Below, in pieces: positions 1 to 58,800 of a DNA stretch of 59,152 nt. How positions within the stretch are numbered: the first letter of the stretch is position 1; each line of letters starts with the position of its first letter. Where the stretch lies: IMG/VR virus record IMGVR_UViG_3300043764_000029, positions 1-59,152 of that record. One strand, 5' to 3'. The position numbers and the translations under genes are program-made. This DNA is from a virus (taxonomy: Duplodnaviria; Caudoviricetes). The notes below the pieces were generated by a model, which saw nothing but the letters and a program-made list of their open reading frames with translations, did not search any database and was not told where the DNA came from.

Positions 1-787
1 CGAAATCAACCACCCACCACCTGGACCACGACGCGGGGATAGGGAACGGGTTGACGAGGTGGACCGCGGGGTCGAAGTCCTCGTAGATGAGGCCTTCGGC
101 GGCGACCCACAGTCCTTTGCGGAGTCGCTGGAAGCGGACGCCGGTGAGGCGTTCGAGTTTGGCGATGTAGGCGCGGCCGCGGGCGGTGAGGATGCCATCG
201 TTGGTGAAGAGGGTGGGGTTGTCCTCGTGGCGGCAGTGGATCATCAGGGTGTCGCCGCGGTCGCATCGCTGTTTGAGCCAGTGGGTGGGTGTGTCGGGGT
301 TGCAGTCGGCGATCAGCTGCTGGAAGGAGACTTTTCCGTTGCGGAGTCGGGTCGTGATGTTCTCCCAGTCGGTGACGGTGAGTTCGGTGGCTTCTTGGGC
401 GTAGACGACGTCGTACTCGGAAGACATGATCTTGGTGGGTTTGTCCATCCCGCCGATGATGATCGCCGACTTGTTGTTCACGTACCGGTACTGCGGCGGC
501 TCCTCCGCGCTGCCGCCGTAGAAGTACACGAGTCCAGCCGCGAGCGCCTCCTTGATCACGTGCTCGCGCCACGTCACCAGCGCCGTCGAGCCCAGCGACT
601 CCCTCGTCTTCCGGACGATCAGCCCGCGCATGCCCGGGTTGACGAGCGCCATCATGTGCAGCTTCTCCAGGCACGCCCGGGACTTCCCGGTGCCGGCCGG
701 GCCACTCAGCAGCACCTCGGCCGCGCGGGTGTGGAACGCCTCGAGTGCTGCGCCGCGCGGCTGGTAGCTGCGGACGGTGTTACTCAC
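1..787 (-). CDS. terL: Terminase large subunit, 5' part (runs off the window; absent from ORF track)
   Basis: Hand translation from GTG 787: VSNTVRSYQPRGAALEAF..LLSGPAGTGKS (Walker A)..SSEYDVVYAQEATE..TTRLRNG..HEDNP..WVAAEGLIYE; colinear with 54027..55346. Confidence 0.93.
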   Translation of the reverse strand, partial: MSNTVRSYQPRGAALEAFHTRAAEVLLSGPAGTGKSRACLEKLHMMALVNPGMRGLIVRKTRESLGSTALVTWREHVIKEALAAGLVYFYGGSAEEPPQYRYVNNKSAIIIGGMDKPTKIMSSEYDVVYAQEATELTVTDWENITTRLRNGKVSFQQLIADCNPDTPTHWLKQRCDRGDTLMIHCRHEDNPTLFTNDGILTARGRAYIAKLERLTGVRFQRLRKGLWVAAEGLIYEDFDPAVHLVNPFPIPASWSRWWVVDF

Positions 788-1002
788 GCTGGGCCATCTC
801 CAGGGGATCCGTTGCGAAGTCGGGTGGTGGTGTTCCCGGGGGCGCGGCGCCGCGCGGCTGGTAACGGCGCAACTCGGCTGCGGTGCTCACCCGCGCCACC
901 AGCGGGGCTTGTGGCGGCACTTCTGCCACCACCAGAGAAGCCGAGCGTCCCGGTGGCAGTAGAACCTGAACCCGTGGGCGGCAAGCCAGCGCCGCAGACC
1001 AA

Positions 1003-1299
1003 TCACCGTTGCTCCTGGCGGTAGTTCTCGTTGGCGGGCGTGCCGTTCCCGGCCGGGATGCCGCGCGCCGCACAGCAGGCCGCACAGCGCGGTGCCCCGA
1101 GTCGGCTGGGCATGCCGGGCATGGACCAGCGGCGCCGCAGGGTGCAGGCGGCGTGCAGGACTGGTCGGGTGCCGTGGTCGATGTGGTCGCGCATCTGCTC
1201 TGGGGCCAGCAGTCCACCATGGATGGCGTGGAGGCGTCGCCACTTGCCGCAGGTCAGCCACCAGTGCCCGTGGTTCTCCGCGATCGGGTGCGAGGTCAC
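1003..1299 (-). CDS. Cys-containing phage hypothetical protein
   Basis: Near-identical copy at 56591..56887; coupled overlaps. Confidence 0.75.
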   Translation of the reverse strand: MTSHPIAENHGHWWLTCGKWRRLHAIHGGLLAPEQMRDHIDHGTRPVLHAACTLRRRWSMPGMPSRLGAPRCAACCAARGIPAGNGTPANENYRQEQR

Positions 1300-1301
1300 C
1301 G

Positions 1302-1591
1302 CTACCTCCCCGCCAGCAGCGGCAGCGCCAGCAGGACCACGGCGGCCACCAGGCCGGCGAAGAAGCCGAACTTCGCGACGCCGGGCGGGATGCCGAACTC
1401 TGGGCGGCCCCAGATCAGGCGGTGCTTGCTCATCGCTGCTGCTCCCATGTGTACCGGCGCCGGTCGGCGGTGTTTCCCCTGATCAGCGCGACTGCGAACC
1501 AGCCCCACCAGGCCCGGAGGATGGTGACGTTGCTGCGGTACCAGCCCGGTCGCTTCTGGAACGGGCCGCTGACCTCGAACTCGACGATCAC
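1302..1591 (-). CDS. Two small coupled ORFs (1430..1591, 53 aa; 1302..1433, 43 aa with TM helix)
   Basis: Conserved in the right copy 56890..57179; GTGA/ATGA overlaps. Confidence 0.6.
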
Positions 1592-1964
1592 GAGGCGCCC
1601 TCGGTCCCGTCGGCGCCGACCGGTCGGAAGACCGTCAGTTCGGCACCGCGCGGCAGCACGAGGAGAGGCACGTCGCCGACTAGGTCCCGCCACCGGGCGC
1701 TCAGTTCGGCTGCCTGCTGCGCCGTCAGGTTGTGGCCGACGGTCAGTGCGAACAGGTCGCCGGGGCGGACTTCGACGCGGCGAAGCTCGCCCGCCTCGAT
1801 GCGCAGTGTCTCGTCGCTCACTGGCCCTCCTCGTCGATGGCGTCGCCCATGGCGCAGCCCGAGCAGCCGCGTCGTCCGCATGTGCAGCAGCCTGGGCAGT
1901 CGCCGAGGCACCAGCCGCCGCAGGGCGTGTGCTGGTAGTCGGCGGGTGGTGGTTCGTCGCTCAC
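1588..1964 (-). CDS. Two small coupled ORFs (1818..1964 Cys-rich; 1588..1821)
   Basis: GTGA overlaps chain them between neighbouring genes. Confidence 0.55.
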
Positions 1965-2347
1965 GGCTGCTGCTCCCATCCGTAGGCCTCGGCGAGCAGC
2001 AGCACCGTCCGACACGGCCAGTCGACCGTCTCGTGGAAGGCGTGGCCGCGCCCGTTGGTCTCCTCTGACGGCCTGCCGCAGGTCGAGCAGTCCCCGCCGT
2101 CGTTGGCGTGCTCGGCGAGGATCTGCCGGTCCGCCGCCACCCGACGCAGAACGGACTCCGGGTCGTGCAGCACGATGTGCTCGGCCGTCGGCGTCTCGGT
2201 CTCCAGCAGGTGCGAAGTCTCGTCGAGCACCCAGGAGTCGCCGAGCTTGTCACCCCGAACCGCCTGCCAGCGGTGGCCGGACGCTTCCCGCGCGATCCGC
2301 TCGATCCGGTCGAGCACCTTCTCCAACCGCGCCGCAATGTCGCTCAC
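1961..2347 (-). CDS. DUF6221-like phage protein
   Basis: HIVLHDPESVLRRVAADRQIL..WPCRTVLLLAEAYG signature. Confidence 0.75.
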   Translation of the reverse strand: MSDIAARLEKVLDRIERIAREASGHRWQAVRGDKLGDSWVLDETSHLLETETPTAEHIVLHDPESVLRRVAADRQILAEHANDGGDCSTCGRPSEETNGRGHAFHETVDWPCRTVLLLAEAYGWEQQP

Positions 2348-3002
2348 GGTCGTTCCTCCCCGTACAGGGCCGCGAGCAGCCGCCGCACGGGCACGGCCTC
2401 GTCCTCGCGGTACTGCCGCGCCACCTTCCGCACGCGCTGCAGCGTGGCCTCGGTCTCCCGCATCCGGGCCAGCTCCGGCATGAACGCCCTGCGCAGGATG
2501 CCGGCGGCGATGCGGCGCTGGTGGTCGCCGGTCGCGTCGATGCAGCGCCGTTCCGGCCAGGGGATGTCCTGGATTGCGGCTTCGATGCGGTCGCGCGCGG
2601 CGCGGTTGCTGCTCGGCAGGATGTGGGGCAGGTCGTTCACTGCTTCACCTTCGGGTCGATCAGGTCGGCGGCCGCCCGGACCGCGTTGCCCTGCAAGATG
2701 GTCTCGTGGTCCAGGGACCCGTGCTTGGCCAGCTCGGCTCTCTCGTACGCGGCCTGCCAGGCGCGCTGCTTCTCGGCGAGCCCGTGCACGAATGCGTCGA
2801 GTTCCTCGGCCGCGTCCTTCAAGTCCTCCGCGAGCGGGCCGCAGTTGTAGTGGCCGCCGCATGTCGAGCCGCCCGCGATCAGCTTGATCAGCTCGTCGCG
2901 CTTGCTCACCACCGGCTCCGCTTCACCCGGGCCGACGTAGATCGCCGTATTCCAGGGCCCGTCACTGCCCAGGAGGGGACCGATGCCCTCGAACCCGCTC
3001 AC
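2344..3002 (-). CDS. Two hypothetical proteins (2637..3002; 2344..2640)
   Basis: 2637..3002 is nearly identical to 57977..58342; GTGA coupling. Confidence 0.65.
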
Positions 3003-3208
3003 CGCTGCTCCCCCGCCCCGCCGGCCAGCCAGCGTTCGACGTCGCTACGCCGGTACCTGATCTGGCCACCCGGCTTCGTGAACGGGATGCCGATCCCCAG
3101 GCACCGGTGGTTCGCGAGCGTCTTACGGCTCAGCTTCGTGAGCGCCGCCGTCTCCGCCGGGGTCAGCCACTCCTCCGAGTCAGCCACCGATACCTCCGCA
3201 GTCATCAA
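2999..3208 (-). CDS. Excisionase/AlpA-like HTH protein
   Basis: WLTPAETAALTKLSRKTLANHR..IPFTKPGGQIRYRRSDVERWL. Confidence 0.8.
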   Translation of the reverse strand: MMTAEVSVADSEEWLTPAETAALTKLSRKTLANHRCLGIGIPFTKPGGQIRYRRSDVERWLAGGAGEQR

Positions 3209-3349
3209 GTGATACTGCGGGAAGTGTGATGACCGCCCGGGACAACTACCGCAGCTGCCCAGCCGCTCACCGACGCGGATTGTCCCGACCGATGTCCAAC
3301 CCGAGCACGAACGCCAGAACCACCGCGACCAGCCACCACACCAGCGCCG

Positions 3350-3850
3350 TCACCGCAGCTGCTCCATGTCCACACCCACCACCTCGTACGTCAGCCCACC
3401 CGAAACCTGCGCCTTCACCGGCTGGTCCAGGCCCAGCAGCTTCCGCCGCGACTCGCTGATCCGCACCAGTCGATCGATCGCCTGCAACACCGGCCCGTCG
3501 TCCGGCAGCGGCACACCGTCCAGCTCGATGACCTTGCCGTTCGACACGGTGATGTGCCGTGCCTCCAGCACCTTCAACGCCGCCTGGTAGAGATGGTCGA
3601 GCCGCTCCAGCTCGAACGCGACGGCAGCGGCAGCCGGCTCGGCAACGATCTCGGAGAGGGCCCGTTGCACTGCGTCGTGGGCCGCGCGAACGTCGTACCC
3701 CATCTCGGCAGCGATCTGCCGGTAGCTCTTGCCTTCGGCTCGGAGCTGGGCGGCCTTGGCGTCGCGCTCGGCGGTCTCGGGAGTGCGGATGAATCGGCCG
3801 CTCGGTCCCCGTGTTGAGTCGGTCTGGCGTTGAGCTGGCTGGTCGTCCAT
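3350..3850 (-). CDS. terS: Putative terminase small subunit
   Basis: N-terminal HTH (GKSYRQIAAEMGY), RRKLLGLDQP motif, position upstream of terL. Confidence 0.75.
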   Translation of the reverse strand: MDDQPAQRQTDSTRGPSGRFIRTPETAERDAKAAQLRAEGKSYRQIAAEMGYDVRAAHDAVQRALSEIVAEPAAAAVAFELERLDHLYQAALKVLEARHITVSNGKVIELDGVPLPDDGPVLQAIDRLVRISESRRKLLGLDQPVKAQVSGGLTYEVVGVDMEQLR

Positions 3851-4203: not shown

Positions 4204-4602
4204 TCAGGCGTCGGGTGCCCACTCGGGCCGGTACTGGGAGTGCCCGTGGAACGGCAGCGCGAGAACTCGCAGTATCCACTCGGCGCGTGAGCGTTCGGGC
4301 TCGTCGCGCCGAATCATGTGTCCGCACTCTGCGATGATGCGCCGTTTGGTGTCGACCTCGGCCAGCACCCTCGCGGGATCGTGGCGGGCGATGTGTCCAG
4401 CGCAGTCGCCATGCATGAAGCCATTTGGGTCAACGGCCACGACGATGTGCCCGGCCCGCACTCCCTCTCCGCCGTCCTCGTCGGCCGACCATTCGGTGTA
4501 GCCGTCGCTGTTGTCGAGGCAGCGGGTTGAGCTCTTGGCACCGAGGGCCCAGCGCTCGTCTTCGTCGAGGCGGGCTCTCAGAAAGTCCACGAGATCCATC
4601 AT
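4204..4602 (-). CDS. DUF6221-like phage protein
   Basis: DLVDFLRARLDEDE..HIARHDPARVLAEVDTKRRI..LRVLALPF..YRPEWAP. Confidence 0.85.
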   Translation of the reverse strand: MMDLVDFLRARLDEDERWALGAKSSTRCLDNSDGYTEWSADEDGGEGVRAGHIVVAVDPNGFMHGDCAGHIARHDPARVLAEVDTKRRIIAECGHMIRRDEPERSRAEWILRVLALPFHGHSQYRPEWAPDA

Positions 4603-5294
4603 CGCTCGGCCTCCTTCAGCACGCTCTGCACAGCCATGAGGCTACGGCCCACCTCGACCGCTATCTTCCTCTGAGACATCCCGTTCTGGCTGAGCTTCCA
4701 GATTCGCGTCTTCTCTTCGTTGCTGAGCTTCGTCTTCTGCAGGCCGCGCTCCGCTCTTGCCTCGCGCTGCCGAGCGGCGCTCCGCTCGTTCTCACACTGC
4801 CGACAGCGATCTCTCGGACGGCCCTTGTCGGTCACGACCGCCCGGTTGTCTCCCTCCTTGGCATGGCCTTTTGCACAGTGGGACTTCCGGGGCGGTCGGT
4901 ACGTTCTGCCACGCGTGACGGCGTCGCGCGTGTTCTCAACGACCGTGCCGGGGTAGAGGTGGGCAGGGTTGACGCATGGCGGGTTGTCGCAGTGGTGGAG
5001 GATCCACAGACCATCTGGGATCGGCCCGTTGGCCTGTTGCCAGGAGTACCGGTGCGCGGGGGTCTTGCCCCAACGTCCGTAGCCCTGCTTGTCTCGCGGT
5101 TCGGTCCAGAGCCAGCATCCGTGTTCGTGGGTCTTGATGACCTTGTCCCAGAACTTCACAGTGAATCGGGGTGCGGTGCCCCGCTCGTCTTTCGGGGTGT
5201 GGCTGAGCCAGCGGCTGTAGCAGCGGGTACACATGCCGCGCGTCAGCTTGTCGGTCCGGCCGCATTGCTCAGTTGAGCAGGTCCGTTCTTCCAT
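4599..5294 (-). CDS. HNH homing endonuclease with C-terminal HTH
   Basis: CWLWT..AHRYSW..ILHHCDNPPCVNPAHLYPGTVVEN; THC-x2-GH-like Zn motif; SQRKIAVEVGRS HTH. Confidence 0.88.
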   Translation of the reverse strand: MEERTCSTEQCGRTDKLTRGMCTRCYSRWLSHTPKDERGTAPRFTVKFWDKVIKTHEHGCWLWTEPRDKQGYGRWGKTPAHRYSWQQANGPIPDGLWILHHCDNPPCVNPAHLYPGTVVENTRDAVTRGRTYRPPRKSHCAKGHAKEGDNRAVVTDKGRPRDRCRQCENERSAARQREARAERGLQKTKLSNEEKTRIWKLSQNGMSQRKIAVEVGRSLMAVQSVLKEAER

Positions 5295-5352
5295 GTCGGC
5301 TCCATCTCGTAGTGGTGGCCGCCCCGGCAGGTGTCGGGGCGGCCGTGTCGGT

Positions 5353-5582
5353 TCAGCGGTCGGCGGGGTGGCAGGTGTGGCCGGGTTCGGCCCACCAGCC
5401 GCAGTTCGGGCAGGTGGACCAGGCGGCGGTAAGGGCCGCGAGCAGGCGGTGGATCACCGGTGTCTCCGGAGGCGGTTGGCGGCGTGGACGGCGGTTTCGA
5501 GGAGCCACGTGAGGCCCCAGTAGCCCGCCACGGCACCCGCGATGATCAGGGTGAGGATGAGCGCGACGACGGCACGATCCAT
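5353..5582 (-). CDS. Two small ORFs (5454..5582, TM, 42 aa; 5353..5457, CPNC, 34 aa)
   Basis: Hand translation; GTGA coupling. Confidence 0.45.
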
Positions 5583-5609
5583 GGCGGACTTCCGGGGTAG
5601 TTGGGGTTC

Positions 5610-5670
5610 CTAGGGCCCGGCTAGGGCTGCTAAGCGGCTAGTGTTTGTGCAGCTCATAGGGCGCTAGGCC
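5610..5670. repeat. Cluster of (C/A)TAGGGC-type 7-mer direct repeats (clt-like)
   Basis: ctagggc 5610 and 5621, ctaagcg 5630, ctagtgt 5638, atagggc 5656, ctaggcc 5664. Confidence 0.6.
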
Positions 5671-6218
5671 GGTTCGGCGAGGGGCTCGGGCCTCTCCTGG
5701 GGGAGGGCCAGCGGCTGGAGGTCGTCGCGGTGGATGCCGGCGCGGTTGCGGCCGTCGAGGTAGAGCTGGGAGCGGACGGGGATGCCGTACGCCTCGTACT
5801 GGCGGCGGAGGGTGGGGGCGTCCCACTCAGTCATGCCTTGGGCGTGGAGTTCCTCGGCGATGTCGGCGAGGTGGACGCCCTTCCGGTCGGCCAGCTTGTA
5901 GCCGAGGAGCCGCATGAACTCGGACCGGACGTGGTCGGGGTCGAGGTTCTCCGGGCGCTTGGCGCTGGGGTGTTCCGTGGCCGGGCCGGCTGGGGCAGCG
6001 GCGGCTCGCCAGGCGGCGATGCACCAGGCGCAGGTTCCGCCGACGAGCCAGAGCGGCGCTTGGTGGGCCAGGTCGAGGACGTACGGCGCGAGCCACGCGG
6101 CGATGCCGACGCGGGCCACGGCGGCGACGGGTCGGCCCTGGGGCACGAAGGCCCGGCCGATGCGCCCAGCGACGATCTGGGAGCCGCTGTAGAGCCGGTT
6201 GGCGGCGCGGGCGGTCAT
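5664..6218 (-). CDS. Membrane protein with TraB-like C-terminal winged-helix domain, no ATPase
   Basis: Two hydrophobic segments, then GVHLADIAEELH..WDAPTLRRQYEAYGIPV..DGRNRAGIHRDDL. Confidence 0.55.
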   Translation of the reverse strand: MTARAANRLYSGSQIVAGRIGRAFVPQGRPVAAVARVGIAAWLAPYVLDLAHQAPLWLVGGTCAWCIAAWRAAAAPAGPATEHPSAKRPENLDPDHVRSEFMRLLGYKLADRKGVHLADIAEELHAQGMTEWDAPTLRRQYEAYGIPVRSQLYLDGRNRAGIHRDDLQPLALPQERPEPLAEPA

Positions 6219-6763
6219 GCTTGGCCGCCGAGGAACACGCCGAGCTGGTTGGCGGCGGGGATGAGGACGGCGGCGGTGAGGCCGGCGGCTCCGGCCGAGA
6301 GGCCGAGGGTGCAGCCGCACCAGACGCCGGAGGCCATCTGGCCCTTGGCGCGCTTGTCGAGGATCTTGCGGAGGATGAGGACAGCGACGACGAGGAGTGC
6401 GGTGACCATGCCGCCGTACTGGGTGAGGGTGGCGGCGGCGTGCCGGGTGACGCCGGTGGTGGTGCCTCCGGAGCCGGCAGCGAGGACCTTGTCCCCTGCG
6501 GCGTTGCTGAAGCCGACGATCTTCCCCGCGATGCTGCCGAGTACGCCGCCGGGGCAGGCGATGGCGAGCATGCCGAGGATGGCGCCTAGCGCGAACGGGG
6601 CGTGGTCGCGGATGTTGAACTTCCCGGTGCCGTGGTGGTGTTCGTGGTCGCCGCCGGGCCGGCCGACCTTCTTCATGGCTGCGGCCCAGACGGCGGGGAG
6701 GAACTGGCGGAGGAGCAGGGCGAGGCCGATGAACAGGCCGCCGAGGGTGATGGTGACGGTCAC
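6215..6763 (-). CDS. Multi-TM membrane protein
   Basis: About 4 hydrophobic segments; GTGA/ATGA coupling. Confidence 0.75.
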   Translation of the reverse strand: MTVTITLGGLFIGLALLLRQFLPAVWAAAMKKVGRPGGDHEHHHGTGKFNIRDHAPFALGAILGMLAIACPGGVLGSIAGKIVGFSNAAGDKVLAAGSGGTTTGVTRHAAATLTQYGGMVTALLVVAVLILRKILDKRAKGQMASGVWCGCTLGLSAGAAGLTAAVLIPAANQLGVFLGGQA

Positions 6764-7205
6764 GGGTGGGCTCCGGTGGTGAAGGTGAGGACCGCGTGGG
6801 CGGCGGCCGGACTGACGGCTAGCGCGGTGACGGGGACGAACAGCGTGGCGCGGGTGGGCCAGCACGGGAGGACCCAGTTGGCGGCGCCGGCCGCGAGGAG
6901 CGCGGCGGCGGTGAGGCCGAGGGGTGCGAGTGGCCCGGCGCTGGTGGACGCGGTGAGTGCGTGGGCCCACGGAATGGCGGCGGTGAGACTGCCGAGGGCG
7001 GCGGTGGCGTTGTAGCCGGGCCGGAGCCGGGCAAGGTCGATCTGGGGCATGGTCAGCTCCAGGTGATGATCAGGCAGATGCAGGTGGCCCAGAGGACGGT
7101 GACGGCGGCGTACCGGATGGTCTGCTGACCGGGTTGGTCGGCGACGCGATAGAGGCCGGCGAGCGCGAGGAGGGCGGCGCACGCGAATGCGGCGATGGCG
7201 GCCAT
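6760..7205 (-). CDS. Two small hydrophobic proteins (7053..7205; 6760..7050)
   Basis: Ala/Leu-rich TM segments, RBS, operon spacing. Confidence 0.65.
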
Positions 7206-7216
7206 GGGGTGTCCCT

Positions 7217-8212
7217 TCAACCTGCGACGCGGCGGCGGGTGCGCTCGACCGTGTCGGGGTTGACGTCGTGTCCGTGGACGCGGCGGACAGCGGCGAGGAC
7301 AGCGTCCGGCTTGTCCAGGCCGGCGCGGACAGCGCGGCGGACAGTGTCCGCGATCGACTTGTCCGTATTGGTGCCGCCGATCGGGAGGATCCGGGCTGAG
7401 CTGGTGTCCTGCTGTCCGGACACGGCGCGGACGGTGTCCGGGTCGGTGTCGAATCCGGCGGTGGTGAGGGCGTCGGCGATGTCCTCGGGGCTGGCGCCGG
7501 GCATGGTGGCGAGTGCCGCGGCGATGGCTGTCCGAATGTCGGCGGACACTGGGGGACGCTGTTTGCCAGGCTTGTCCGGGCCGTCCCCATCGGTGTCCTC
7601 GGGTGCCAGCGGGGCGGGGAGCATGAGCGGCGCGCGGCGGGTGATCTGCCGTTGCATGTCGATCCGGCTGACGGCCACGTCGAAGTCGGCAAGGTCTTCG
7701 GCCTGGCGGAGTTCGCCGTCGCGGCGGATGCGGGCGAGCTTCGCGGCGTGCTCGGCGTCTTCGCGTGCCTGGTCTGCGGCGGCGCGGGCGGTGATGTGCC
7801 GGGCCTGGCGGAGGACGTCGTTGACCTCGTCCTGCTGCTCGGTGGTGAGCGCGGTGGGGTCGGCGGTGAGTTGGGCGTCGACGTGCCAGAAGAGCTCGGC
7901 GGCGAGCGGGGGGACGACGGCGACGATGCCGCCCCACCCGTAGGTGCCGAATCCGTGGACGGCGAGGATGGCGAGGGTTCCGGCGAGGCCGGCGAGCATC
8001 GCGACGCAGGTGAGCTTTGTGCGCTGGGCCCGGTAGGCGAGCATTCCGCCGACCCACAGGCCTTCCGCGCCGGTTCCGGCGGTGATGGCGACGGGGCCGA
8101 CGCCGAGGAGGTCCCAGACGCTGTAGAGGGTCCATGCGGCGCTGGCGGCGGTGAAGATGGCGGCGATGATGCGTGGGGCGTGGTGCTTGAGGGTACGGGT
8201 GCGGCTGACCAT
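7217..8212 (-). CDS. SpdB-like membrane protein (4 TM, coiled coil, C-terminal helical domain)
   Basis: Architecture matches Streptomyces plasmid spread proteins; AGGAG RBS. Confidence 0.6.
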   Translation of the reverse strand: MVSRTRTLKHHAPRIIAAIFTAASAAWTLYSVWDLLGVGPVAITAGTGAEGLWVGGMLAYRAQRTKLTCVAMLAGLAGTLAILAVHGFGTYGWGGIVAVVPPLAAELFWHVDAQLTADPTALTTEQQDEVNDVLRQARHITARAAADQAREDAEHAAKLARIRRDGELRQAEDLADFDVAVSRIDMQRQITRRAPLMLPAPLAPEDTDGDGPDKPGKQRPPVSADIRTAIAAALATMPGASPEDIADALTTAGFDTDPDTVRAVSGQQDTSSARILPIGGTNTDKSIADTVRRAVRAGLDKPDAVLAAVRRVHGHDVNPDTVERTRRRVAG

Positions 8213-8291
8213 GGGAGGTCTGATCTCCTGTGGTTGGGGGCCGGGCCGCGAGTGGAGTCGCGAGCCCGGCTCGTTGGCGTCGGGAAGGCGG

Positions 8292-8684
8292 TCAGCCTTC
8301 GTGGATGAGCTGGCCGTAGTCGTCGCGGGGGCAGTCGCAGCCGCACGCACAGTCCGCGTGGTCGGGGCCGACGCCGTAGCAGTGGCAGCTGCCTTCCCCG
8401 CACGGCTCGCGGTCGTCGTCCTCGAAGTCGTCGTCCTCGTCGATCAGGGCGTTGGCGCAGCGCCCGCCGTCCTCAGCGTCGACGAAGTCCAGGTCACAGC
8501 CAGTGCCACAGTCCTGGCAGCCGTAGCTGTTGCAGCCGTCGACGGCGCAGCCGGAGAAGTAGGCGACTCCACCGCAGTCGGGGCATCCGCGCTCGTCGGG
8601 CACGGTGTGCTCCGAGAACGGGTTGAGGATGCTGGCCTCGGTAGGGCCGCTGGGAAGGTTGACGGTGAACTTGATCTCGCTCAC
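8292..8684 (-). CDS. Cys-rich acidic protein
   Basis: Several CxxC pairs and an Asp/Glu tract. Confidence 0.65.
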   Translation of the reverse strand: MSEIKFTVNLPSGPTEASILNPFSEHTVPDERGCPDCGGVAYFSGCAVDGCNSYGCQDCGTGCDLDFVDAEDGGRCANALIDEDDDFEDDDREPCGEGSCHCYGVGPDHADCACGCDCPRDDYGQLIHEG

Positions 8685-8708
8685 GAAGGTTGCTCCTTGG
8701 GATTGCGG

Positions 8709-9960
8709 TCAGCCGTTGAACTGCGGGCAGCCGTACTGGTGCAAGTCGGCGTTGTCGGGGCAGAGACAGCTGTCGGCGGCCTTGGCGACGAACTCCATGC
8801 CGCTCTTCTCCGCCCACCGGCGGGCACGGCGCTCTTCGTCGGCCGCGCAGTGGGCCGCGAAGTCGACGTAGCCGTAGACGTGGTAGGCGACGGGCCCGAA
8901 CTTGATCTCGGCGGACAGGTTGCCTTCCGCGTCGGCGGAGACTCCGAGGCCGAACCGGTCGGCGAACTCGCGCACGGCGGCGTTGGTGTGCAGCGGGAGC
9001 AGGACCCGCTCGCGGGTCGGGTGCGGGTACTGCGGGTTGGCGTCGAGCCAGTCGGCGAGCTGGCGCAGGGCGTTGGTGAACTCGGCGCGGGCGGTGTCGG
9101 TCACGGGGTCCTCTCAAGGTCGGGCGGTGCACCGGCAGCTGGTCGGCTGAGTGCCTCGGAGGGCGCACGTCGCGGGTACGCGCACCCGGGTGGCGATCAG
9201 GCGAAGCAGGTGAAGTCGAAGGTGACGTCGCCGCCGTTCGCGTCGAGGACCTCGATGTCCCACGCGGCGTCCCGGTCGGCCATCCGCATCACGACGGCGC
9301 CGACGCGCTCGATCCCGCTGGCGGTGAGCTCGCGCTCACGGCGGCCGGACTCGGTCACGTAGCGGAGCTTGTAGGTCGGGGCAAGGCCGAGGTACTTGCC
9401 GGTGAAGTAGCCGGGGATGGCGTCGGCGCACTCCCGCCAGGAGGGGCGGTTGCGGTCGCTGCGGACCTGGGCGACGCCGTGCTCGGGTCCGGTGAGGGTG
9501 TGGGCGGTGTAGGCGACGAGGTGCACGCGCATGGGTGGCTCCTGAGGTCGGGTGGTGCGCGGGTGGGTGGTCGGGAGGTGGCGGCCCTGTCGGGGGCCGG
9601 GGCCGCCGGTCTGTGGGTGCGTCAGGCGGCGAGGGCGAGGCGGGCGGCGACGGTCTTGTACTCGGCCTTGCGGGGCCGGTAGGCGGTCACGATCAGCGCG
9701 ACCTGGGCGGGGGTGAAGGCGCGGGCGTCGCGCATGTGGCGTCCGGCGTGGACGCGGATCTCGCTGCCGGTGATGGCGAGCTTCTTCGCGGCGGTTCGGA
9801 GGGACCCGGCGACGGAGCGGGCCTCGCGGGTGGTGAGGCCCTGGGCGGCGGCGTGGGTGGCGAGGGTGGCGGAGCCGTTGCGGGCGAGGCGGGAGGCGGC
9901 GCGGTTGGTGCGGGCGCGGTCGCGGAGGATCTGGCGGGCCTTGCGGGTGTTGGCGTTCAT
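8709..9960 (-). CDS. Three hypothetical proteins heading the operon (9622..9960; 9197..9532; 8709..9104)
   Basis: Each has a GGAG/GAGG RBS and GC3-rich codons. Confidence 0.7.
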
Positions 9961-10003
9961 CTGATCCTCCGTGGGTGGTGGGCCCGTTGTGGGGCGATGA
10001 CTC

Positions 10004-10090
10004 CATACTTGCATCATCATGATGCAACGTCAAGTGTCATGACATGGATGCATCCTTGCGTTACAATTCCTATGTCTACCAGGGATGCAA
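10004..10090. promoter_or_regulatory. Divergent promoter with palindromic operators
   Basis: TTGCATCAT-C-ATGATGCAA (10009-10027) lies between minus-strand TTGACG and AAGTAT (17-nt spacer); TGTCATGACA 10035, GGATGCATCC 10046. Confidence 0.7.
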
Positions 10091-10113
10091 CTAGGCGTGG
10101 CATCATCGAGGGC

Positions 10114-10401
10114 ATGACGAGTACCGAGAAGAAGCAGGAGGCGGCGCGTGACCAGCTCGCCGAGCTCAGCGCTGCCTACACCGAGGCGGAGACCGCGCTC
10201 GACGCCGCACGCGAGGCGCTGAACGCGGGCATCGTCTCGGTGCTGAAGGCCAAGACTCTCGGCCCTTCCGAGGTCACTCGGATCGTGCCCTACGAGCGGC
10301 AGCACGTCGGCCGCATCGCCAAGGCCGCAGGCGTCCCACCACTGCGCGAACGCACCGTCGTAAGCGCCAAGAAGGCCGCCGGAGGGGACTCCTCCGAGTA
10401 G
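10114..10401 (+). CDS. Small coiled-coil/HTH regulator (Kor-like)
   Basis: LGPSEVTRIVPYERQHVGRIAKAAGVPP; divergent from the operon. Confidence 0.7.
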   Translation: MTSTEKKQEAARDQLAELSAAYTEAETALDAAREALNAGIVSVLKAKTLGPSEVTRIVPYERQHVGRIAKAAGVPPLRERTVVSAKKAAGGDSSE

Positions 10402-10414
10402 GCCCGGAGGAAGC

Positions 10415-10906
10415 ATGGCGAAGAGTCTGGGACGAACTGCCCTGTATCGGCTGTACGACGAGGCCGGGAGTTTGCTGTACGTGGGCATCACGGGGAACCT
10501 TGACGCTCGTTGGGGTCAGCACTCGGTCAAGGCCAAGTGGTGGTCGGAGGTGGCTGAGCGGACCGTCGAGTGGCACGAGACGCGCGCTCTGGCAGAAGCC
10601 GCCGAGCGTGTGGCCATTGCTTCGGAGCGCCCTCGCTGGAATGTCCATCACCAGCGCCCGGCGGCCGCGAGCCTTGGTGGTGAGCCGTTGGCGTGGGACC
10701 GGGCTCAGATCTTCAAGCGGTTCAAAAAGGCGCGAGAGGCTCGCTTGGCCCTGCACGGTACGGTCACCGAGACGGCCGTTGAGGAGCTTCGGAAGGGTGC
10801 CACCCCGCAGAAGCTTGCCGAGTTGACCGGCCTCAGCAGCGAGTTTTTCCGGAAGCTCGCCCGCGAGGCTGGCATTCCTCCGCGAAGGAGCAGTAGCGGC
10901 CGCTGA
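10415..10906 (+). CDS. GIY-YIG nuclease-family domain fused to HTH
   Basis: ALYRLYD..LLYVGIT..R..QH..AE..AI..P.WN, then TPQKLAELTGLS HTH. Confidence 0.8.
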   Translation: MAKSLGRTALYRLYDEAGSLLYVGITGNLDARWGQHSVKAKWWSEVAERTVEWHETRALAEAAERVAIASERPRWNVHHQRPAAASLGGEPLAWDRAQIFKRFKKAREARLALHGTVTETAVEELRKGATPQKLAELTGLSSEFFRKLAREAGIPPRRSSSGR

Positions 10907-10966
10907 CGGCTGCCACTCTCGATGGGCCGCCCGGCGCTCGCCGTGCGGCCCTTCGTGCTGTCCGGG

Positions 10967-11737
10967 TCAGGGTGCTTCTGGGTGCTCGGTGGCGTACCTC
11001 CGCTTGGCGGCTCGGATGACCTCGACGAGCGCGGCCTCGCCGACGCGCCCGAGTGTGCCGGCGCCGCGGACGCGGATGGTGTCGCCGTCGACGGTGACGG
11101 TGTGGCAGGTGTCCACGACCGGCGTCGGCTCGGGGGCGGGCTGCGGGCAGCATTCGGCGCAGGGGCAGCAGAACGGCTGCTCTCGGTAGTTGTGGTAGAC
11201 GACCGGGCCGCCTCCGCAGATGCAGCACGTCTCCGGCTGCGTGCCCGTTCCGTCGAGCAGCCGGAGGATCTCCTCGCCCGCAGCCTGCTCGTTGCCGTCC
11301 CACGCAGGGCCGTCGGCGGCGAGCTTCTGAGCGTAGGCGCGTGCAGCGGCGATGCGGCTTTCGAGAGCGTTCACCTTTGCCCGGTGCCGTTCGTCCGAGC
11401 AGATGAGCGGCGCGCCAGCAGTGTCCTTCCAGGCGGCACGGAGTCGCTCGGCAAATGCGTCGCGGTCGGCGTCGCGCTGCCGCAGTCGGACGAGTTCGGC
11501 CTGGGCGGTCTTGAGCTGACCGCCGAGTTGCTGCACCTGCGCCATGAGCGCGCCCGCGCTCGGATGGGGGAGCCGGCGCTCGGCGGCCCGACGCCGTGCT
11601 GAGTGCCAGGCGGCCCGGAGGCGGTCCTCTTGGCGCGCCCGCTGTCGGTGTACAGCGAGCTCGTCCTCGGCAGACTTCAACGCCTGCCGTGCCTCTTCGA
11701 GTTGCTTGCGGACCTGGTCGTGGTAGTGGTCGGTCAT
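10967..11737 (-). CDS. Coiled-coil/Cys phage hypothetical protein
   Basis: ORF track; coupled to neighbour. Confidence 0.65.
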   Translation of the reverse strand: MTDHYHDQVRKQLEEARQALKSAEDELAVHRQRARQEDRLRAAWHSARRRAAERRLPHPSAGALMAQVQQLGGQLKTAQAELVRLRQRDADRDAFAERLRAAWKDTAGAPLICSDERHRAKVNALESRIAAARAYAQKLAADGPAWDGNEQAAGEEILRLLDGTGTQPETCCICGGGPVVYHNYREQPFCCPCAECCPQPAPEPTPVVDTCHTVTVDGDTIRVRGAGTLGRVGEAALVEVIRAAKRRYATEHPEAP

Positions 11738-12105
11738 CTGGTGGCTCCTGTTCGGGTGTTGAGGATGGCTCGGAGGTCGGCGGCGATGGCCGGCTCGCTG
11801 TTGGCGAGGCGGGCGGCGTAGGTGCGGACGGCGGCGAGTTGGGCTTCGGCTGCGCGGAACATCGCGACGACGAGGCGGGGGCTGGCCATGACGATGTCCT
11901 CGGGGCGGATCTCGCCGAGGTCTAGGGCGAGTTCGACGGCTTCGCCGAGGGTGTGGGCGCCGAGCTTGCGGTAGGCGTTGCTGCGGTGGGTGTTGAGCGT
12001 CTTCCGGGCGCGGCCGGTCTCATGCATCACCGAGGTGATGGTGCGGCCGTTGCCGAGGAGAACGAGGAGGGTGCGCTCGGACGGGGTCAGGAGCCGCCGG
12101 TTCAC
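11734..12105 (-). CDS. LuxR-type HTH regulator
   Basis: LTPSERTLLVLLGNG..KTLNTHRSNAYRKLGA. Confidence 0.8.
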   Translation of the reverse strand: MNRRLLTPSERTLLVLLGNGRTITSVMHETGRARKTLNTHRSNAYRKLGAHTLGEAVELALDLGEIRPEDIVMASPRLVVAMFRAAEAQLAAVRTYAARLANSEPAIAADLRAILNTRTGATR

Positions 12106-12993
12106 TGGCCGAACTCGTCGTTCAGGCGGTCCCACATCCGCTGCCACAGGGCCTGCTCGGCGGCGTCTCGCGTGTACCGCTCGGCCTCCGCCGACACGTC
12201 CCGCTCGTCCTGGCGCCGATCGAGCCGGCGGTCCAGGACGACCGCCGCGCCGAGGATCAGCGCGCAGGCGGCGATCAACACGGCAAGCTGCCACCACGAC
12301 ATCGGCGTCACGACGCCTCCCCACCGGGTCGCGGGTGCGGCCGCAGGTGAACCTCACCGGGCGGCAGCGACTCGTCGATGACGACCGGCAGGTCGGTTAG
12401 TGAGCCGATCTGGCCCAGGGCCCGGGGGAACGCGCTTTGCTGGAAGATCTCGGTCCGCATACGGTGCACCGCCGCAGGGTTCGCGGCGACCTGCTGCACG
12501 GGTTCGGTTCGGACGATGGTCAGGCCAGCGCCCTGGATGGCGGTGACGATCGCGTGCTCCAGACGCAGCTGTTCGGCGAGGAATTCGGCACGGGCTCGGT
12601 CGGCGAGTTCGAGCATGGCGGCCATGGTCGGCGGCTGACTGGTCACTCGGTCACCTCGCCGAGGATCTGCCGTGCCACCGCGAGGGCCCGATCGAGCCCG
12701 ATGTTGATCGGCGCCCACGCAGTGCTGGACACCGTGCTCGCCTCCCACTCCAGCCAGTCGGCGAGGGCGAGCCCAACACCCGGATGCATGAGGGCGATCC
12801 ACTCGGCGTTCGCGCTGTTGCTCGTCGGCTCGTCGACTACGTAGTCGGTGTCGTCGATGCCCGGGTACCGGATGATCCGGTCGCCGCCGTCGAGGCAGAG
12901 CCACGGGCCGGGCGTGATGTCGGGGTCGGTGGCGTGCTCTCGGAGACGCTTCGCAGCGGCGGTGAGGGTCTCGGCGGGCGTCAGGTCGGGCAT
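12102..12993 (-). CDS. Three small proteins (12643..12993 with TPGPW motif; 12308..12646; 12102..12311 TM)
   Basis: GTGA overlaps; ITPGPW..NAEWIALMHP motif. Confidence 0.6.
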
Positions 12994-15040: not shown

Positions 15041-17250
15041 TCAGGGTGTGGTGGTCGGGGCGGAACCGGCGGCGGTGCGGCACTTGGGGCACTGCCAGGT
15101 GTCCATGTGCCCGTGGAGCCAGCCGCGTTCGGCGGCCTTGGTGAAGCGTTCGCTGTTCGGGCAGTGCAGGCCGGAGCAGCGCACCCACTCGTCCGGGTCG
15201 GCGGCGCCCTTGGCGAGGCGGGCGTCTTCGCAGGCGTCTTCTTCTTCGATCGACTGGTGCGGGATCTCGCAGATGGCCCGGGAGGGAAGCGCGGAACCAG
15301 CGGCAACCGCGTCCGCGTAGATCCGCAGGGCGCGAGCTGAGCCGCGGGTGTGCTCGGCGTCCGTCTGGGACTGCTCGTCGTCGAAGCAGTCCTGCTTGCT
15401 GGCGATGTCGTCTAGGACGTCGGCAGCCTTGTGGAAGGCGGCGTGCTGCGCGTTGGCCAGCTCGGCGCGGGTCTGGTCGCGCTGCTCGGTGAGCTTGGCC
15501 AAGACAGGCCGGATGAGCGCAACGCACGTGTTCACCAGCGAGGCCGGTGCAGCGTCGGGCTGCGGCTGATCGGGCCACTCGTACAGGCCGTCGGCGAACA
15601 GGTCGTCGAGGTGCGGTTCCACGTCGATGTCGTCGCGGCGAGCCTGGCGGATCGCGGCGTCACGGCAGCGGGTCATCTCGGCCAGCTCGGCGCGGAGCCG
15701 CTCGACCGTCGGCGAGTGCACGAGGCACACATCGCCGGGGCCGTCGAACGAGCAGCAGCACTTGCCGTTGTCGTCGAAGGACAGCAGCTTCTCCTGCAAC
15801 TCCTCCACGTGCTGCCGCAGCCGGTCCGCTTCGGCGTGCTGGCGCTTGGCCTCCAGCACGGTGGACTCCCACCGCGCCCGGTACGCGGCGGCCTCGCGTT
15901 GGGCGGTCGCGAGTGGGGCGGTGCCGGAGCCGATCTGGTGGACCACCTCGGTGATGCGGCCCATGTCGGCGCCGAGCGCATGGCGGAACGCCATGAGACT
16001 GAGGCGGGCTTCGCGGAGGTCACCGACAGGGTTCGCAGGGCGCTGCCCGGAGCGCAGCCGGTCCAGCTCGGGCTGCACCACGGCGAGCACGGCGTCGCGG
16101 ACGGCGTGGACGCCAGCGGTACCGCCGCAGTCCTGGGTCAGACCGATGGCGCACTCGATCTCGGCGGCGAGTTGCTGGTCGGTGAGCGGGGCGGTCATCG
16201 GGCGTCTCCCTGCTGGCTGAGGGCGTCGGCGAGTTGCTCGTCCGAGGCGTTGTCGAAGGCGTCGTTCCAGTCGACGTAGTCGCCCTGCGCGCGGGCCTCG
16301 GCGTAGCTCTCCCAGCACGGGCCGCACAGCGGGCTCGGGGTGCGGCCCCATTCGGGCTTGGCGGGATGGAGCGTGCGGGGCTGCTTGCAGCGGGCACACG
16401 GGGCGGTAGCGGTCATCGGGCCACCGCCTCGGCCGGCGCGGCGAGGGTGGGGCAGTCGTGGTGGTGGACGACGTGGAGCACACCAACGGCGTAGGGCGGC
16501 CGCTGGCACGCCGGGCACTGCCGGGCGGGGCCGAAGGCCTCGCCGTAGACCTCGGTCCGGATGTCGTAGCGGTCGGGGGCGCTGACCTCGTGCCAGGCAG
16601 TGATCTCAGTCTCGCCTTCGAGCCGCTCGTACCAAGAGCCGTCGTCCTTGACGCTGGTGAGGGCGTCGTCGGCGTCGTCTGCTTCGACCCAGAGCACGTA
16701 GCGCTGGGTGACGTCGATGATGACGGGGTAACGGTCCTGCTCGTACGCCCGGAAGGGGTCGATGCGCTCGGCGTGGTCGCGGAGGCGTTCGGCGAGCTGC
16801 TCGACGGCGTTGCGGTCGAGGCGATCGCCAGGGTTGAGCTCGTGGACCTCGAACAGCTCGGTGAGGTCTTCGTTCAGCAGGGTGTTGGCGCGGGCGATGC
16901 GTTCGGCGATGATGGCGCGGGGGTCGGTGGTCACGTCAGTTCTCCTGGGCGGTGATCGAGCGGGCGGCGTGCAGTCGGTCGCAGATCTCGTGCAGGGTGT
17001 CGAGGTGCCACAGCGGGCCGATCACCGTGCCTGCGGTCTCGGCGGCTTCGGTGAGGACCTGGTCCCGGTAGGCGGCGAGCAGGCGGTCAACCTCGGCGCG
17101 GTTCTCACCGGCTAGCCGCAGCACGGCATACAGCTCGTCGCGGGCGCTGAGGTTCGGCTGGTCGTCGTCGGGCTCGGCGGCCGGCTTGTAGGCGGGCAGG
17201 GCGGTCCCGTCCGCGACGTGCGCGGGGTCGAAGGCGGCGGGGTGGGTCAT
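15041..17250 (-). CDS. Four hypothetical proteins (16936..17250; 16413..16934; 16195..16416; 15041..16198)
   Basis: Coupled minus-strand ORFs with high-GC codon bias. Confidence 0.65.
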
Positions 17251-17327
17251 CGTGGGCTCCTACGGGGTGTCAGGCGGGCGTGTGGCGGGTGGTGTGGGTA
17301 TGCGGCGTGCGGGGCGTCTGCGGACGC

Positions 17328-18220
17328 TCAGGCGGCCTCCGCAGCGGCGTTCCGGGCGGCATGCCGAGCGATGCGGGTCGGCACCTCGAGACCGGCCCTC
17401 TCGAATTCCTCGACGAGGAGCCGGTCGAACTCGGCACGGTGGCTCCCAATCAGCCGGTCGATGGCGCGTTCTCCGGCCGCCGCGCGGGCCTCGGCGCCCG
17501 TGGTTCCTGCGAGGCGAAGGCGCTCCTGCTCGCGTCCCCAGGCGAGGTGGGCTTCGCAGCGGAGCTTCTTCGCCTCGGTGCGGCGGTCGTTGACGAACTG
17601 CTGGACGCGAAGGATTCGCTGCCGCCACTGGTTGGTCTCTTCGCTGTGGTCGCCCTTGCGCGCGGCCAGCTGCTGCTGCAATTCGAGGTTCAGGTTGGCG
17701 AGTGCGCCCAGCCACCGGTCGAGGTTGATCCGATGACGAAGGGCTGCGGCCTGCTGCGGGGTGGCCTGTCCTCGGACTTCGCTGCCGACGATCCTGAGGA
17801 ATTCGCCGTCGTCGAGGGCGGTGACCTGCTGGGTGACGGTCGGGTCTTCGACTGGTGCCGCAGGTGCGGGCTTGCTGGTCAGGTGATACCAGCCGCAAGA
17901 GCATCCGTACGCATGAAGCGCTTTGCCATACCGCGCGGCGGCGAGTTGGGCAGCGGTCTCGGTTGCGAACCGGCTCTTGGCCGGTGTGGGGCAGGTCGGT
18001 TCGGTCATGTCGGCTCCTGTGTGGGTGGTGGTCAGGCGGCCTTGCGGACGATCCACGCGTCGAGGCGGCTGGGGTGGCTTCCCGTGGTCAGCGGGCGGCC
18101 CTTCGGTGTCGTGCACCGGGCGCCCGGCCGGGCGAGGCACGTTGGGACCGGGCACGGGATCGCCCACTCGGGCGGCTTCTCGCGGCCACTGCGGAGACTG
18201 GGCGGCATCGGGGCGCCCAT
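17328..18220 (-). CDS. Two Zn-finger proteins (18032..18220; 17328..18008)
   Basis: CP..C.A.PG..C..H..R and CPTP.K..Y.C.CGWYHLTS motifs. Confidence 0.7.
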
Positions 18221-20189: not shown

Positions 20190-20483
20190 TCATGCCGCAC
20201 ACTCCTCGGCCTGAGCCCGCCGCTGGCGTCGGTACAACTCGGCGCGCTCCGCCGGGTCGAGGCCGCCACGCACGCCGTACCGGTTCCCCGCCGTTGCGGA
20301 GCCCTCGCGGGCCATCTCCGAGTCGAGACAGACCTCGCGGACCGGGCACCGGGCGCACCACGCCTTTGCAGGTAGGTACGCCAGCTTGGCTGCGGTGCCG
20401 ACGCCCGCCGGATGGAACAGGTCCGGGTCTGCTGTCCGGCAAAGCGCCTGGTCCTCCCACCGATCGCCCCTGCGCGCGCTCAT
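20190..20483 (-). CDS. whiB: WhiB-family Fe-S transcription factor
   Basis: WEDQALC..DPDLF..AKAWCARCPVREVCL..GVRGGL..ER. Confidence 0.92.
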   Translation of the reverse strand: MSARRGDRWEDQALCRTADPDLFHPAGVGTAAKLAYLPAKAWCARCPVREVCLDSEMAREGSATAGNRYGVRGGLDPAERAELYRRQRRAQAEECAA

Positions 20484-20926
20484 GCTGCAGCCTCCGGGGC
20501 ATGCACCCAGCGCGAGACCGTGCGCTCGTGGACCTGAAGGTCCCGGGCGATGTCCTTCTGGTGGTCGCCGAGGTGGTGGTACCGGATTCGGGCCGTCAGC
20601 TTCTGCTCCTCGATCAGCAGCTCCCGGACCCCGCTCGGCGCGGCCCGATGGACGGCGACATCCCGCAGAGTCTCCTGACGGTCCGCAGGCTTGGCAGCCC
20701 GACCGTGCTCGTCCCATGTGAGGTAGCCGAGTGCGGCGACCACCGTGGTGTTGGGGTCGACGAGCCCGGCGAGGACAACGATCAGCGCGTCCCGTTCGGC
20801 CTGGTCAAGCTCGGCGAGGATGTGCGCGACATCGCGGTGATCCCCGTCGCCGTGGACAACGCACGCCAAGCCGGCGGCGATCGGCAGAAGACGCTCCGCG
20901 AGGTCCCCGCGCTCGGTGGCGCTCAC
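20480..20926 (-). CDS. Protein with C-terminal HTH
   Basis: HQKDIARDLQVHERTVSRWV. Confidence 0.7.
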   Translation of the reverse strand: MSATERGDLAERLLPIAAGLACVVHGDGDHRDVAHILAELDQAERDALIVVLAGLVDPNTTVVAALGYLTWDEHGRAAKPADRQETLRDVAVHRAAPSGVRELLIEEQKLTARIRYHHLGDHQKDIARDLQVHERTVSRWVHAPEAAA

Positions 20927-26990: not shown

Positions 26991-27209
26991 ATGCACGTCT
27001 TGCACGTCTGCCATTTTGTTGACCTCGGGCCAGCCTTCATCGGCTGGGCCGCCGACGTTGAAGGGGCGGTCACCTGCATCGTCACGCCGCGCGTGCACGA
27101 TGACGAAGCCGTTCGGAACCAAGCCCGCGAACTCCTCCACCGCGCCGGAGCCGACCCGGAGCCCTGCTCCTCTGCCTGCCCCAACGCCCTTCCCCCACGG
27201 GAGGGCTGA
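26991..27209 (+). CDS. 72-aa protein translationally coupled to the integrase
   Basis: GAGGTG RBS; TGATG overlap with int. Confidence 0.6.
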   Translation: MHVLHVCHFVDLGPAFIGWAADVEGAVTCIVTPRVHDDEAVRNQARELLHRAGADPEPCSSACPNALPPREG

Positions 27210-56091: not shown

Positions 56092-56121
56092 GGGGTTGCC
56101 TCTCATCCAGGTGCCTCCGCG

Positions 56122-58707: not shown

Positions 58708-58800
58708 CGGTCGCCGCTCACCGACGCGGGTTGTCCCGGCCGATGTCCAGGCCCAGCACGAACGCCCCGACCACCGCGAGCACCCACCACATCGCGTCCG

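Follow-up and report, generated by a model that had tools for sequence, protein, structure and literature searches.

An SpdB-family gene and its membrane-protein operon in a tailed phage, probably of Streptomycetaceae, with a possible role in the spread of phage DNA

The IMG/VR virus record IMGVR_UViG_3300043764_000029 (59,152 bp), the whole of which is called the window below, is rated 100% complete, has a G+C content of ~70% and represents a tailed temperate phage with nearly all of its genes on the minus strand. Between its replication and packaging genes, late in the transcription order and just before HNH endonuclease and terminase genes, it carries an operon of 11 minus-strand genes (g1-g11, from position 9960 down to 5353). 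The fifth gene, g5, is assigned through profile comparison to the SpdB family, to which SpdB of plasmid pIJ101 and SpdB2 of plasmid pSVH1 belong, and is followed by genes for further membrane proteins. We describe this module, its recurrence in phages and plasmids, and the possibility that its products help phage DNA to cross the cross-walls of a mycelial host.

The operon and its SpdB-family protein

The module genes were re-called from the sequence; all have a G+C content at third codon positions (GC3) of 0.86-0.97 and most are preceded by a GGAG-like site (Table 1). Stop and start codons overlap (GTGA or ATGA) at g7/g8, g8/g9 and g10/g11, and the spacing across g5, g6 and g7 is 2-11 nt. Plasmid spd genes are described as lying in operons that encode small membrane proteins, the stop codon of one gene often overlapping the start codon of the next (PMC4447253), and g5 resembles them in standing in an operon of this kind. 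By a Kyte-Doolittle scan, six consecutive membrane proteins (g5-g10) follow four soluble ones (g1-g4). A prediction made earlier from the DNA sequence, referred to here as the original prediction, had described a long minus-strand operon with five consecutive membrane proteins; the operon is borne out, with its 11 genes reaching from a promoter pair to a hairpin, and so is the run of membrane proteins, although these number six. The two small hydrophobic proteins that it listed are g6 and g7 (two segments each), its four-transmembrane (TM) protein is g8 (four segments in the same scan) and its TM-plus-winged-helix protein is g9, recognized through an AlphaFold2 (AF2) model and its structural neighbours.

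In g5, a multi-TM domain at the N-terminus is followed by a charged stretch of helix and, at the C-terminus, by a helix-turn-helix (HTH)-like domain, a layout shared with pIJ101 SpdB and pSVH1 SpdB2, whose N-terminal multi-TM domain is homologous and is likewise followed by a helical region and a C-terminal HTH-type domain. Two hydrophobic segments are strong in the Kyte-Doolittle scan, and two weaker ones were recognized on visual inspection and from the way they align with pIJ101 SpdB in its TM region. Of the SpdB-like four-TM/coiled-coil protein proposed earlier, the SpdB likeness stands on the lines of comparison given next, and the membrane region amounts to these two strong and two weaker segments.

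A profile (A1) built from 23 g5 relatives and searched against 1.8 billion proteins matched 275 proteins at E ≤ 0.001; among 10 of these matches that were looked up, one is the UniRef entry 'Protein spdB' and the remaining named ones are 'hypothetical'. Within a set of 183 proteins, pIJ101 SpdB itself matches 23 at E < 0.001, most strongly P0048 (2.6e-12), which also matches the g5 profile (1.4e-25) and completes a profile chain from g5 through P0048 to pIJ101 SpdB; the six other pIJ101 proteins matched none of the 183. A hidden Markov model (HMM) of 180 sequences recovered pIJ101 SpdB (3.1e-10), an open reading frame (ORF) of plasmid pSAM1 (3.9e-51) and gp82 of phage Kromp (6.6e-10). Finally, hhalign of A1 against pIJ101 SpdB gave a probability of 64% (E 6.7e-5) over 123 columns of the TM region. 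Similarity to Spd proteins, which had been named beforehand as a check, was in this way found for g5 and pIJ101 SpdB. A language-model lead points in the same direction, as the three ESM Atlas clusters nearest to g5 (score 0.90-0.91, 193-198 shared features) carry PF27080 (SpdB_N) and PF27079 (HTH_SpdB_C) in 54-88% of their members. Local Pfam, PHROG and NCBIfam scans of g5 gave nothing decisive, NCBIfam returned no useful match among the 10 proteins scanned, and a tblastn search of g5 against phages matched the C-terminus of Kromp gp82 only. The conserved part of the family is the N-terminal membrane domain. Even close relatives have exchanged the C-terminal domain, which in 147 profile hits consists of assorted HTH types, with DUF2637 in two and T5orf172/MUG113 in five.

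Among the genes downstream of g5, g8 matches phrog_16379 (1.5e-24) and has 30 homologues, and its AF2 model reaches a mean predicted local distance difference test (pLDDT) value of 55.6, which is too low for a useful structure search. For g9, one membrane segment was recognized by Kyte-Doolittle, and the AF2 model, made with 15 homologues, gives two helices at residues 30-73, followed by a C-terminal domain of H-b-H-H-b-b topology at a pLDDT of ~85. Its structural neighbours are nearly all winged helices, with a best Foldseek E of 0.035 (none ≤ 0.001) and a best Z of 7.6, in the 'middling' range, in a VIA-wide structure search, which supports, at the level of fold class, a predicted TM-plus-winged-helix protein. 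The winged-helix domains of FtsK gamma and TraB were not among the 50 structure matches listed for g9, which is uninformative either way, and the predicted complex of g8 with g9 scored 0.00, evidence neither for nor against an interaction.

Table 1. Coordinates of the module, its regulatory region and other phage genes in the window
Feature	Position	Strand	Description
Divergent promoter and operator-like region	10009-10067	both	putative, consensus matches
Minus-strand promoter-like site	10040-10013	-	sigma-70-like consensus match
Plus-strand promoter-like site	10039-10067	+	sigma-70-like consensus match
gR1	10114-10401	+	95 aa; first gene of divergent unit; in no known family
gR2	10415-10906	+	163 aa; second divergent gene; N-terminal GIY-YIG domain, C-terminal HTH-like tail
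g1	9622-9960	-	112 aa; soluble, basic; first operon gene
g2	9197-9532	-	111 aa; soluble; in no known family
g3	8709-9104	-	131 aa; soluble; in no known family
g4	8292-8684	-	130 aa; cysteine-rich, acidic; no family match
g5	7217-8212	-	331 aa; assigned to SpdB family
g6	7053-7205	-	50 aa; two hydrophobic segments
g7	6760-7050	-	96 aa; two hydrophobic segments
g8	6215-6763	-	182 aa; four TM, glycine-rich
g9	5664-6218	-	184 aa; two predicted N-terminal TM helices, linker, predicted winged-helix domain at residues 94-166
g10	5454-5582	-	42 aa; single-TM peptide
g11	5353-5457	-	34 aa; CxxC...C..H motif
Terminator-like hairpin	5317-5344	-	10-bp all-GC stem, without U tract; 3' of g11
Tyrosine-type integrase	27209-28459		PHROG scan
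Endolysin	33040-33807		separate lysis region, beside tail genes
Tape measure	38925-41591		PHROG scan
Terminase large subunit	54027-55376		PHROG scan

The first gene of the operon, g1, matches phrog_10890 (2.9e-24) and weakly resembles the IS481 leucine-zipper/HTH model (0.0034, which falls short of the cut-off). An ORF of viral contig L007 shares 75% identity with g4 across 65 aa, and g11 has a counterpart at the same relative position in that contig (64% identity over 33 aa). The hairpin beyond g11 has a folding energy of -27.4 kcal/mol (z = -3.41; 0 of 200 shuffles fold equally well), and the HNH endonuclease gene comes next after it.

Recurrence of the module in phages and plasmids

We surveyed 14 viral contigs, prophage loci and phages with an SpdB-family hit (L001, L005-L009 and L012-L019). 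Directly downstream of the SpdB-family gene, a g8-like gene was found in nine of them and a g9-like gene in ten; both were present in five and no locus had neither. The contig L005 ends just past its g8 homologue. A terminase or portal gene lies within 10 kb downstream of the SpdB-family gene in 7 of the 14 loci, and the module described here likewise stands a few kb ahead of the packaging genes. Other viral contigs, as well as phages VWB and Kromp, keep the same gene order, with protein identities of 37-81%. g7 is 82% identical to its counterpart in L005 and 59% to that in L007. The match of g6 in L005 is limited to its last 24 aa, and g6 is the weakest gene call of the operon.

In VWB (gp24-gp25-gp26) and Kromp (gp82-gp85), as in the present phage with its virion genes, the order is an SpdB/DUF2637-type gene, a g8-like gene and a g9-like gene. 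The g8 family HMM reached the C-terminal part of VWB gp25 (1.8e-19), which is longer than g8 and g8-like in this part only, as well as Kromp gp84 (6.3e-13). A tblastn search of g8 against phages gave zero matches. At full length, the g9 family HMM matched VWB gp26 (1.8e-21) and Kromp gp85 (4.8e-16). The first gene of both phages matches Pfam DUF2637 (VWB gp24, 3.6e-38; N-terminus of Kromp gp82, 1.2e-8) and g5 does not. The present phage differs from VWB and Kromp in that g6 and g7 separate g8 from the first gene of the set and that a promoter-like site belongs to the operon itself.

With Kromp gp82, a distant DUF2637-type protein, as query, 91 phage records were matched, all of them from Streptomyces phages and none from the much larger number of Mycobacterium or Gordonia phages in the same collection. 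DUF2637-type genes occur also in Streptomyces phages of ~130 kb (LukeCage gp33) and in the 14.8-kb phage Mulchroom; in these two, the ones inspected of their kind, g8 and g9 partners are absent. Mulchroom (OQ784832) has 19 annotated protein-coding genes, one of which is a DUF2637/SpdB-like 'membrane protein' at 11331-12287, and its host field names another phage, MulchMansion. Read in this way, the host field would make Mulchroom a satellite phage. The presence of the DUF2637/SpdB-like gene among so few suggests that it matters even in a minimal genome.

The restriction to Streptomyces phages bears on the possibility that the module tethers phage DNA to the membrane for replication, partition, packaging or entry, with no movement between compartments. 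Two proteins of the module, g5 at its C-terminus and g9, join membrane anchors to DNA-binding-type domains, and the module is placed between replication and packaging genes, as such a tether might be. A role specific to mycelium is the better fit to a pattern of 91 Streptomyces phages in 91 records, and we regard simple tethering as quite improbable, though the pattern may alternatively reflect gene exchange with Streptomyces plasmids.

The g9 type is common to phages and plasmids. In plasmid proteins, the g9 HMM matched the C-terminal domain only, and this domain matches 14 Streptomyces plasmids; in all three plasmid loci inspected out of these hits, the g9-type gene is the last of its operon. 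These three operons, located near the ends of linear plasmids of Streptomyces (NZ_CP109504, NZ_CP108618 and NZ_CP109056), encode a DUF2637/SpdB2-type protein and, 2-4 genes downstream, a protein with the same TM-linker-winged-helix layout as g9, the similarity being confined to the winged-helix half. These operons have a divergent GntR gene, a WhiB gene in two of the three, and no g8 relative. The best plasmid relative of g5, WP_053143206 of pSAM1 from Streptomyces ambofaciens, is 31.6% identical to it across 209 aa, with an E of 5e-20 that refers to a small database. It belongs to a GntR-divergent operon that ends in a TraB-like transfer protein, the plasmid thereby supplying its own translocase, and the genes downstream of it have no similarity to g6-g9. 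At 16655-18181 of pSAM1 (NZ_CP012383), just downstream of the TraB-like gene, a 'terminase family protein' is annotated, which hints at the mixing of phage and plasmid genes.

Taken alone, genes common to plasmid spd operons that occur with no TraB or Kor found and no enrichment of pSVH1-type clt repeats could be read as the decaying, functionless remnant of a captured plasmid or actinomycete integrative and conjugative element (AICE). All frames of the module are, however, intact with coding-type GC3, and the gene order is kept at the identities given above in viral contigs, VWB and Kromp. The ratio of nonsynonymous to synonymous substitution rates (dN/dS) against L005 is 0.19 for g8 and 0.34 for g7; for g6 it is 1.36, over just 43 codons. 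The conservation of the operon in intact phages and prophages, which the original prediction had proposed to survey, is at odds with a decaying remnant, and we hold this explanation to be very improbable.

Regulatory region and phage context

Upstream of g1, the two sigma-70-like sites found in 4500-11800 (7.3 kb, where 0.2 would be expected) face away from each other within 10013-10067. The -10 element of the minus-strand site lies partly within a perfect 9+9 palindrome (10009-10027), and GGATGCAWC-type copies lie at 10046-10055 and 10083-10091. In the whole window, the operator-like word occurs three times against 0.99 expected, and as 9 of 100 shuffles reach three, this is not significant alone. 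The operator-controlled promoter proposed earlier is seen here as a promoter-like pair with an overlapping palindrome, at the level of consensus matches, and is not conserved in relatives: no promoter-like site was found within ~7 kb upstream of the module in its two nearest relatives, L005 and L007. Self-regulation is for this reason at most a feature of the present phage and does not go with the module in general.

What had been described as a divergent regulator is a unit of two genes, neither of them GntR-like. gR1 matches phrog_34713 (function unknown, 4.4e-16) and has no Pfam match; it is possibly a regulator. gR2 resembles a GIY-YIG endonuclease, passing the cut-off of Pfam GIY-YIG with 1.1e-6 and matching 'endonuclease' families of PHROG (9.6e-20 and 9.3e-17), and its tail has a weak MerR-like HTH match. 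Its residues 10-99 gave tblastn matches in 180 actinophage records annotated as GIY-YIG endonuclease, and no relative of it was found in the viral contigs. SpdB-type membrane domains recur with GIY-YIG-type domains: apart from gR2 at the head of the operon in this phage, a T5orf172/MUG113 domain follows the membrane domain in the 5 of 147 g5 profile relatives mentioned above (P0063, P0074, P0099 and P0120 among these), and both T5orf172 and MUG113 are members of the GIY-YIG clan. In Mulchroom, the gene immediately ahead of the one for the DUF2637-type membrane protein codes for a GIY-YIG endonuclease (the two at 10508-12287), and no direct similarity was found between gR2 and Mulchroom gp14.

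A promoter of its own, sigma-70-like and with a palindrome, would set the module apart from the long early operon, as might be expected of genes for exclusion or defence, by which membrane proteins made from the prophage would keep out the DNA of superinfecting phages or stop conjugative plasmids and AICEs from transferring and spreading their DNA, with the poisoning of Spd/TraB complexes as one conceivable means. The module is a run of small membrane proteins, and an SpdB paralogue could plausibly disturb the multiprotein complexes that plasmid Spd proteins form (PMC4447253). The promoter, however, is lacking ahead of the module in the two nearest relatives, and DUF2637/SpdB-like genes are found also in the ~130-kb Streptomyces phages and in Mulchroom. 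The ~130-kb phages are presumably lytic, and if so, a function confined to lysogens would be unexpected there. As to expression, the four sequencing runs listed are all of soil metagenome DNA, one of them perhaps the source of the record, and no RNA run was among them. Exclusion is therefore considered unlikely.

Apart from the genes of Table 1, portal, head protease and major head protein genes were identified by PHROG scans of the window, and the early arm carries a replication initiator, a DnaC-like loader and WhiB-like genes. A megablast search of the region against GenBank phages gave zero matches. The endolysin gene belongs to a separate lysis region and bears on a further explanation, in which the module assists lysis or access to peptidoglycan, with g5 permeabilising the membrane as a holin or pinholin. 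A module transcribed late, with the HNH and terminase genes directly after it, would suit such a helper, and SpdB2 was found to let T7 lysozyme reach the cell wall in E. coli (PMC4447253). The separate lysis region and the presence of an HTH domain in g5 and of a winged helix in g9, which a lysis role leaves unexplained, make it a poor candidate that we rate as improbable. A holin role as the main explanation was rejected in view of the endolysin region.

Several other observations were made on the record itself. Its ends, 1-3701 and 55041-59152, are collinear diverged copies of one region at an offset of ~55.4 kb, some patches being 91-93% identical and others ~70%, and a second, truncated terminase gene at 2-787 has 51% protein identity to the terminase large subunit of Table 1. 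More than one genome unit is therefore contained in the record, and its ends look like the join of two related phages or circular assembly into a variant, not a clean terminal repeat. At 38747-39013, at the 3' end of the minus-strand tape-measure gene and just downstream of it, three tandem 89-bp units (two identical, the third 74% identical) may represent repeat expansion or an assembly artefact. Two HNH-type endonuclease genes, at 4599-5294 and 55339-56187, flank the packaging region, one being of HNH + HTH and the other of HNH + endonuclease VII type. Together with gR2 and an endonuclease-like ORF at 20480-20986, they bring the nuclease-type genes of the phage to at least four.

A possible role in the mycelial host

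As the close homologues of the module proteins come from Kitasatospora and Streptomyces genomes and from soil metagenomes, the host is probably a mycelial member of the Streptomycetaceae. In plasmids of such hosts, the SpdB2 protein is described as an oligomeric membrane protein that forms pores, binds double-stranded DNA non-specifically as well as peptidoglycan, and is needed for spreading and pock formation (PMC4447253). The same study (Thoma et al. 2015) noted SpdB2 homologues in actinophages, citing the genome papers of phiC31 (1999) and VWB (2005), and suggested that they have a role in the spread of phage DNA. The central idea, that SpdB2-like genes of phages spread phage DNA, is thus already in print since that paper (PMC4447253). 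A literature search, with most subscription journals outside its scope, returned no experimental test of phage SpdB2-like genes and no description of accompanying genes of the g8 or g9 type.

We give about an even chance to the reading that the module products form a membrane assembly which helps phage DNA across hyphal cross-walls, driven by a pump of the host or of a plasmid. This reading rests on the homology between g5 and SpdB, on what has been published about SpdB2, on the presence of two membrane-tethered domains of DNA-binding type and on the restriction to phages of mycelial hosts. According to it, g5 would be made together with the small hydrophobic proteins g6, g7 and g10, the four-TM protein g8 and the membrane-anchored winged-helix protein g9, and these would form an assembly in the membrane of the host, with the hyphal cross-walls as its probable site. 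The assembly would help double-stranded phage DNA to pass between adjacent hyphal compartments, so that one event of infection or induction could reach cytoplasm beyond a single compartment. As the module has no motor of its own, a borrowed pump would be needed, and the DNA might be driven by an FtsK-like protein of the host or by TraB from a plasmid or AICE resident in the cell. TraB can act in trans: a plasmid deleted for traB spreads again when the recipient supplies the protein (PMC5133688).

Several results weigh against such a role. Plasmid spreading needs TraB (PMC5133688), and FtsK/TraB (PF01580) was not matched in the window at E ≤ 1; relatives of pIJ101 Tra and of the TraB-like protein of pSAM1 were found in 0 of the 14 phage and prophage loci. 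No GntR-type Kor repressor was found, and pIJ101 KorA matches nothing in the phage loci. The pSVH1 TraB recognition sequence (TRS) word GACCCGGA occurs 9 times against 5.4 expected, unclustered, and 8 of 100 shuffles reach 9; clt was tested with this pSVH1-type word alone, other plasmids using other words. The link of g5 to its family is weak in direct comparison (BLASTP to pIJ101 SpdB, 2e-4, 31% identity over 100 aa), and Pfam DUF2637 (PF10935) is matched neither by g5 nor, at E ≤ 10, elsewhere in the window. The SpdB2 homologue of phiC31 was not located, the 180-sequence HMM giving a best E of 0.57 and DUF2637 no match. g6 and g7 have relatives solely in the closest viral contigs and no detectable plasmid relatives, and none was found in plasmids for g8 either, including the five plasmid loci L003, L004, L021, L024 and L025; judged by these searches, the g8 type is so far found in phages only. 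Selection on g5 appears just moderately strong (dN/dS of 0.57 against L005), and values of ~1 for g5, g8 and g9 against the distant L007 are uninformative, because a GC3 of ~90% constrains synonymous sites and the divergence is high.

Unlike pIJ101 and pSVH1, where SpdB-type proteins are plasmid-borne, g5 is encoded in a tailed phage for which no TraB, GntR-type Kor/TraR, SpdA or KilB relatives were found. The proposal of a kor-regulated tra/spd transfer operon was not upheld, and as FtsK/TraB and GntR are missing and the TRS word is not enriched, the term 'spread/transfer operon' overstates the case: only spd-type parts are present.

A stricter version of the DNA-crossing reading, in which the phage set is a motor-less DNA gate that recruits an FtsK-like pump of the host or a resident TraB and moves naked genomes through cross-walls independently of virions, is rather doubtful in our judgement. 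The gR2-type GIY-YIG/HTH neighbour may be a working partner of such a gate, because this type of domain is fused to SpdB_N in the relatives with T5orf172/MUG113 and adjoins the DUF2637-type gene in Mulchroom.

How phages deal with a multicellular, septated host is poorly understood, whereas plasmids are seen to use Spd proteins together with TraB. To the idea of Thoma et al. the present analysis adds that the SpdB-like gene of phages usually comes with a g8-like and/or g9-like partner (14 of 14 loci, VWB and Kromp), that the g9 type is common to phages and plasmid spd-type operons, and that no motor, Kor repressor or enriched pSVH1-type clt repeats were found with it. As VWB and Kromp are cultured phages, grown on S. 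venezuelae and S. lividans, respectively, the function is open to direct gene deletion and imaging. If the motor-less gate were true, Streptomyces phages would spread within the mycelium without virions, a route that has not been shown for any bacteriophage.

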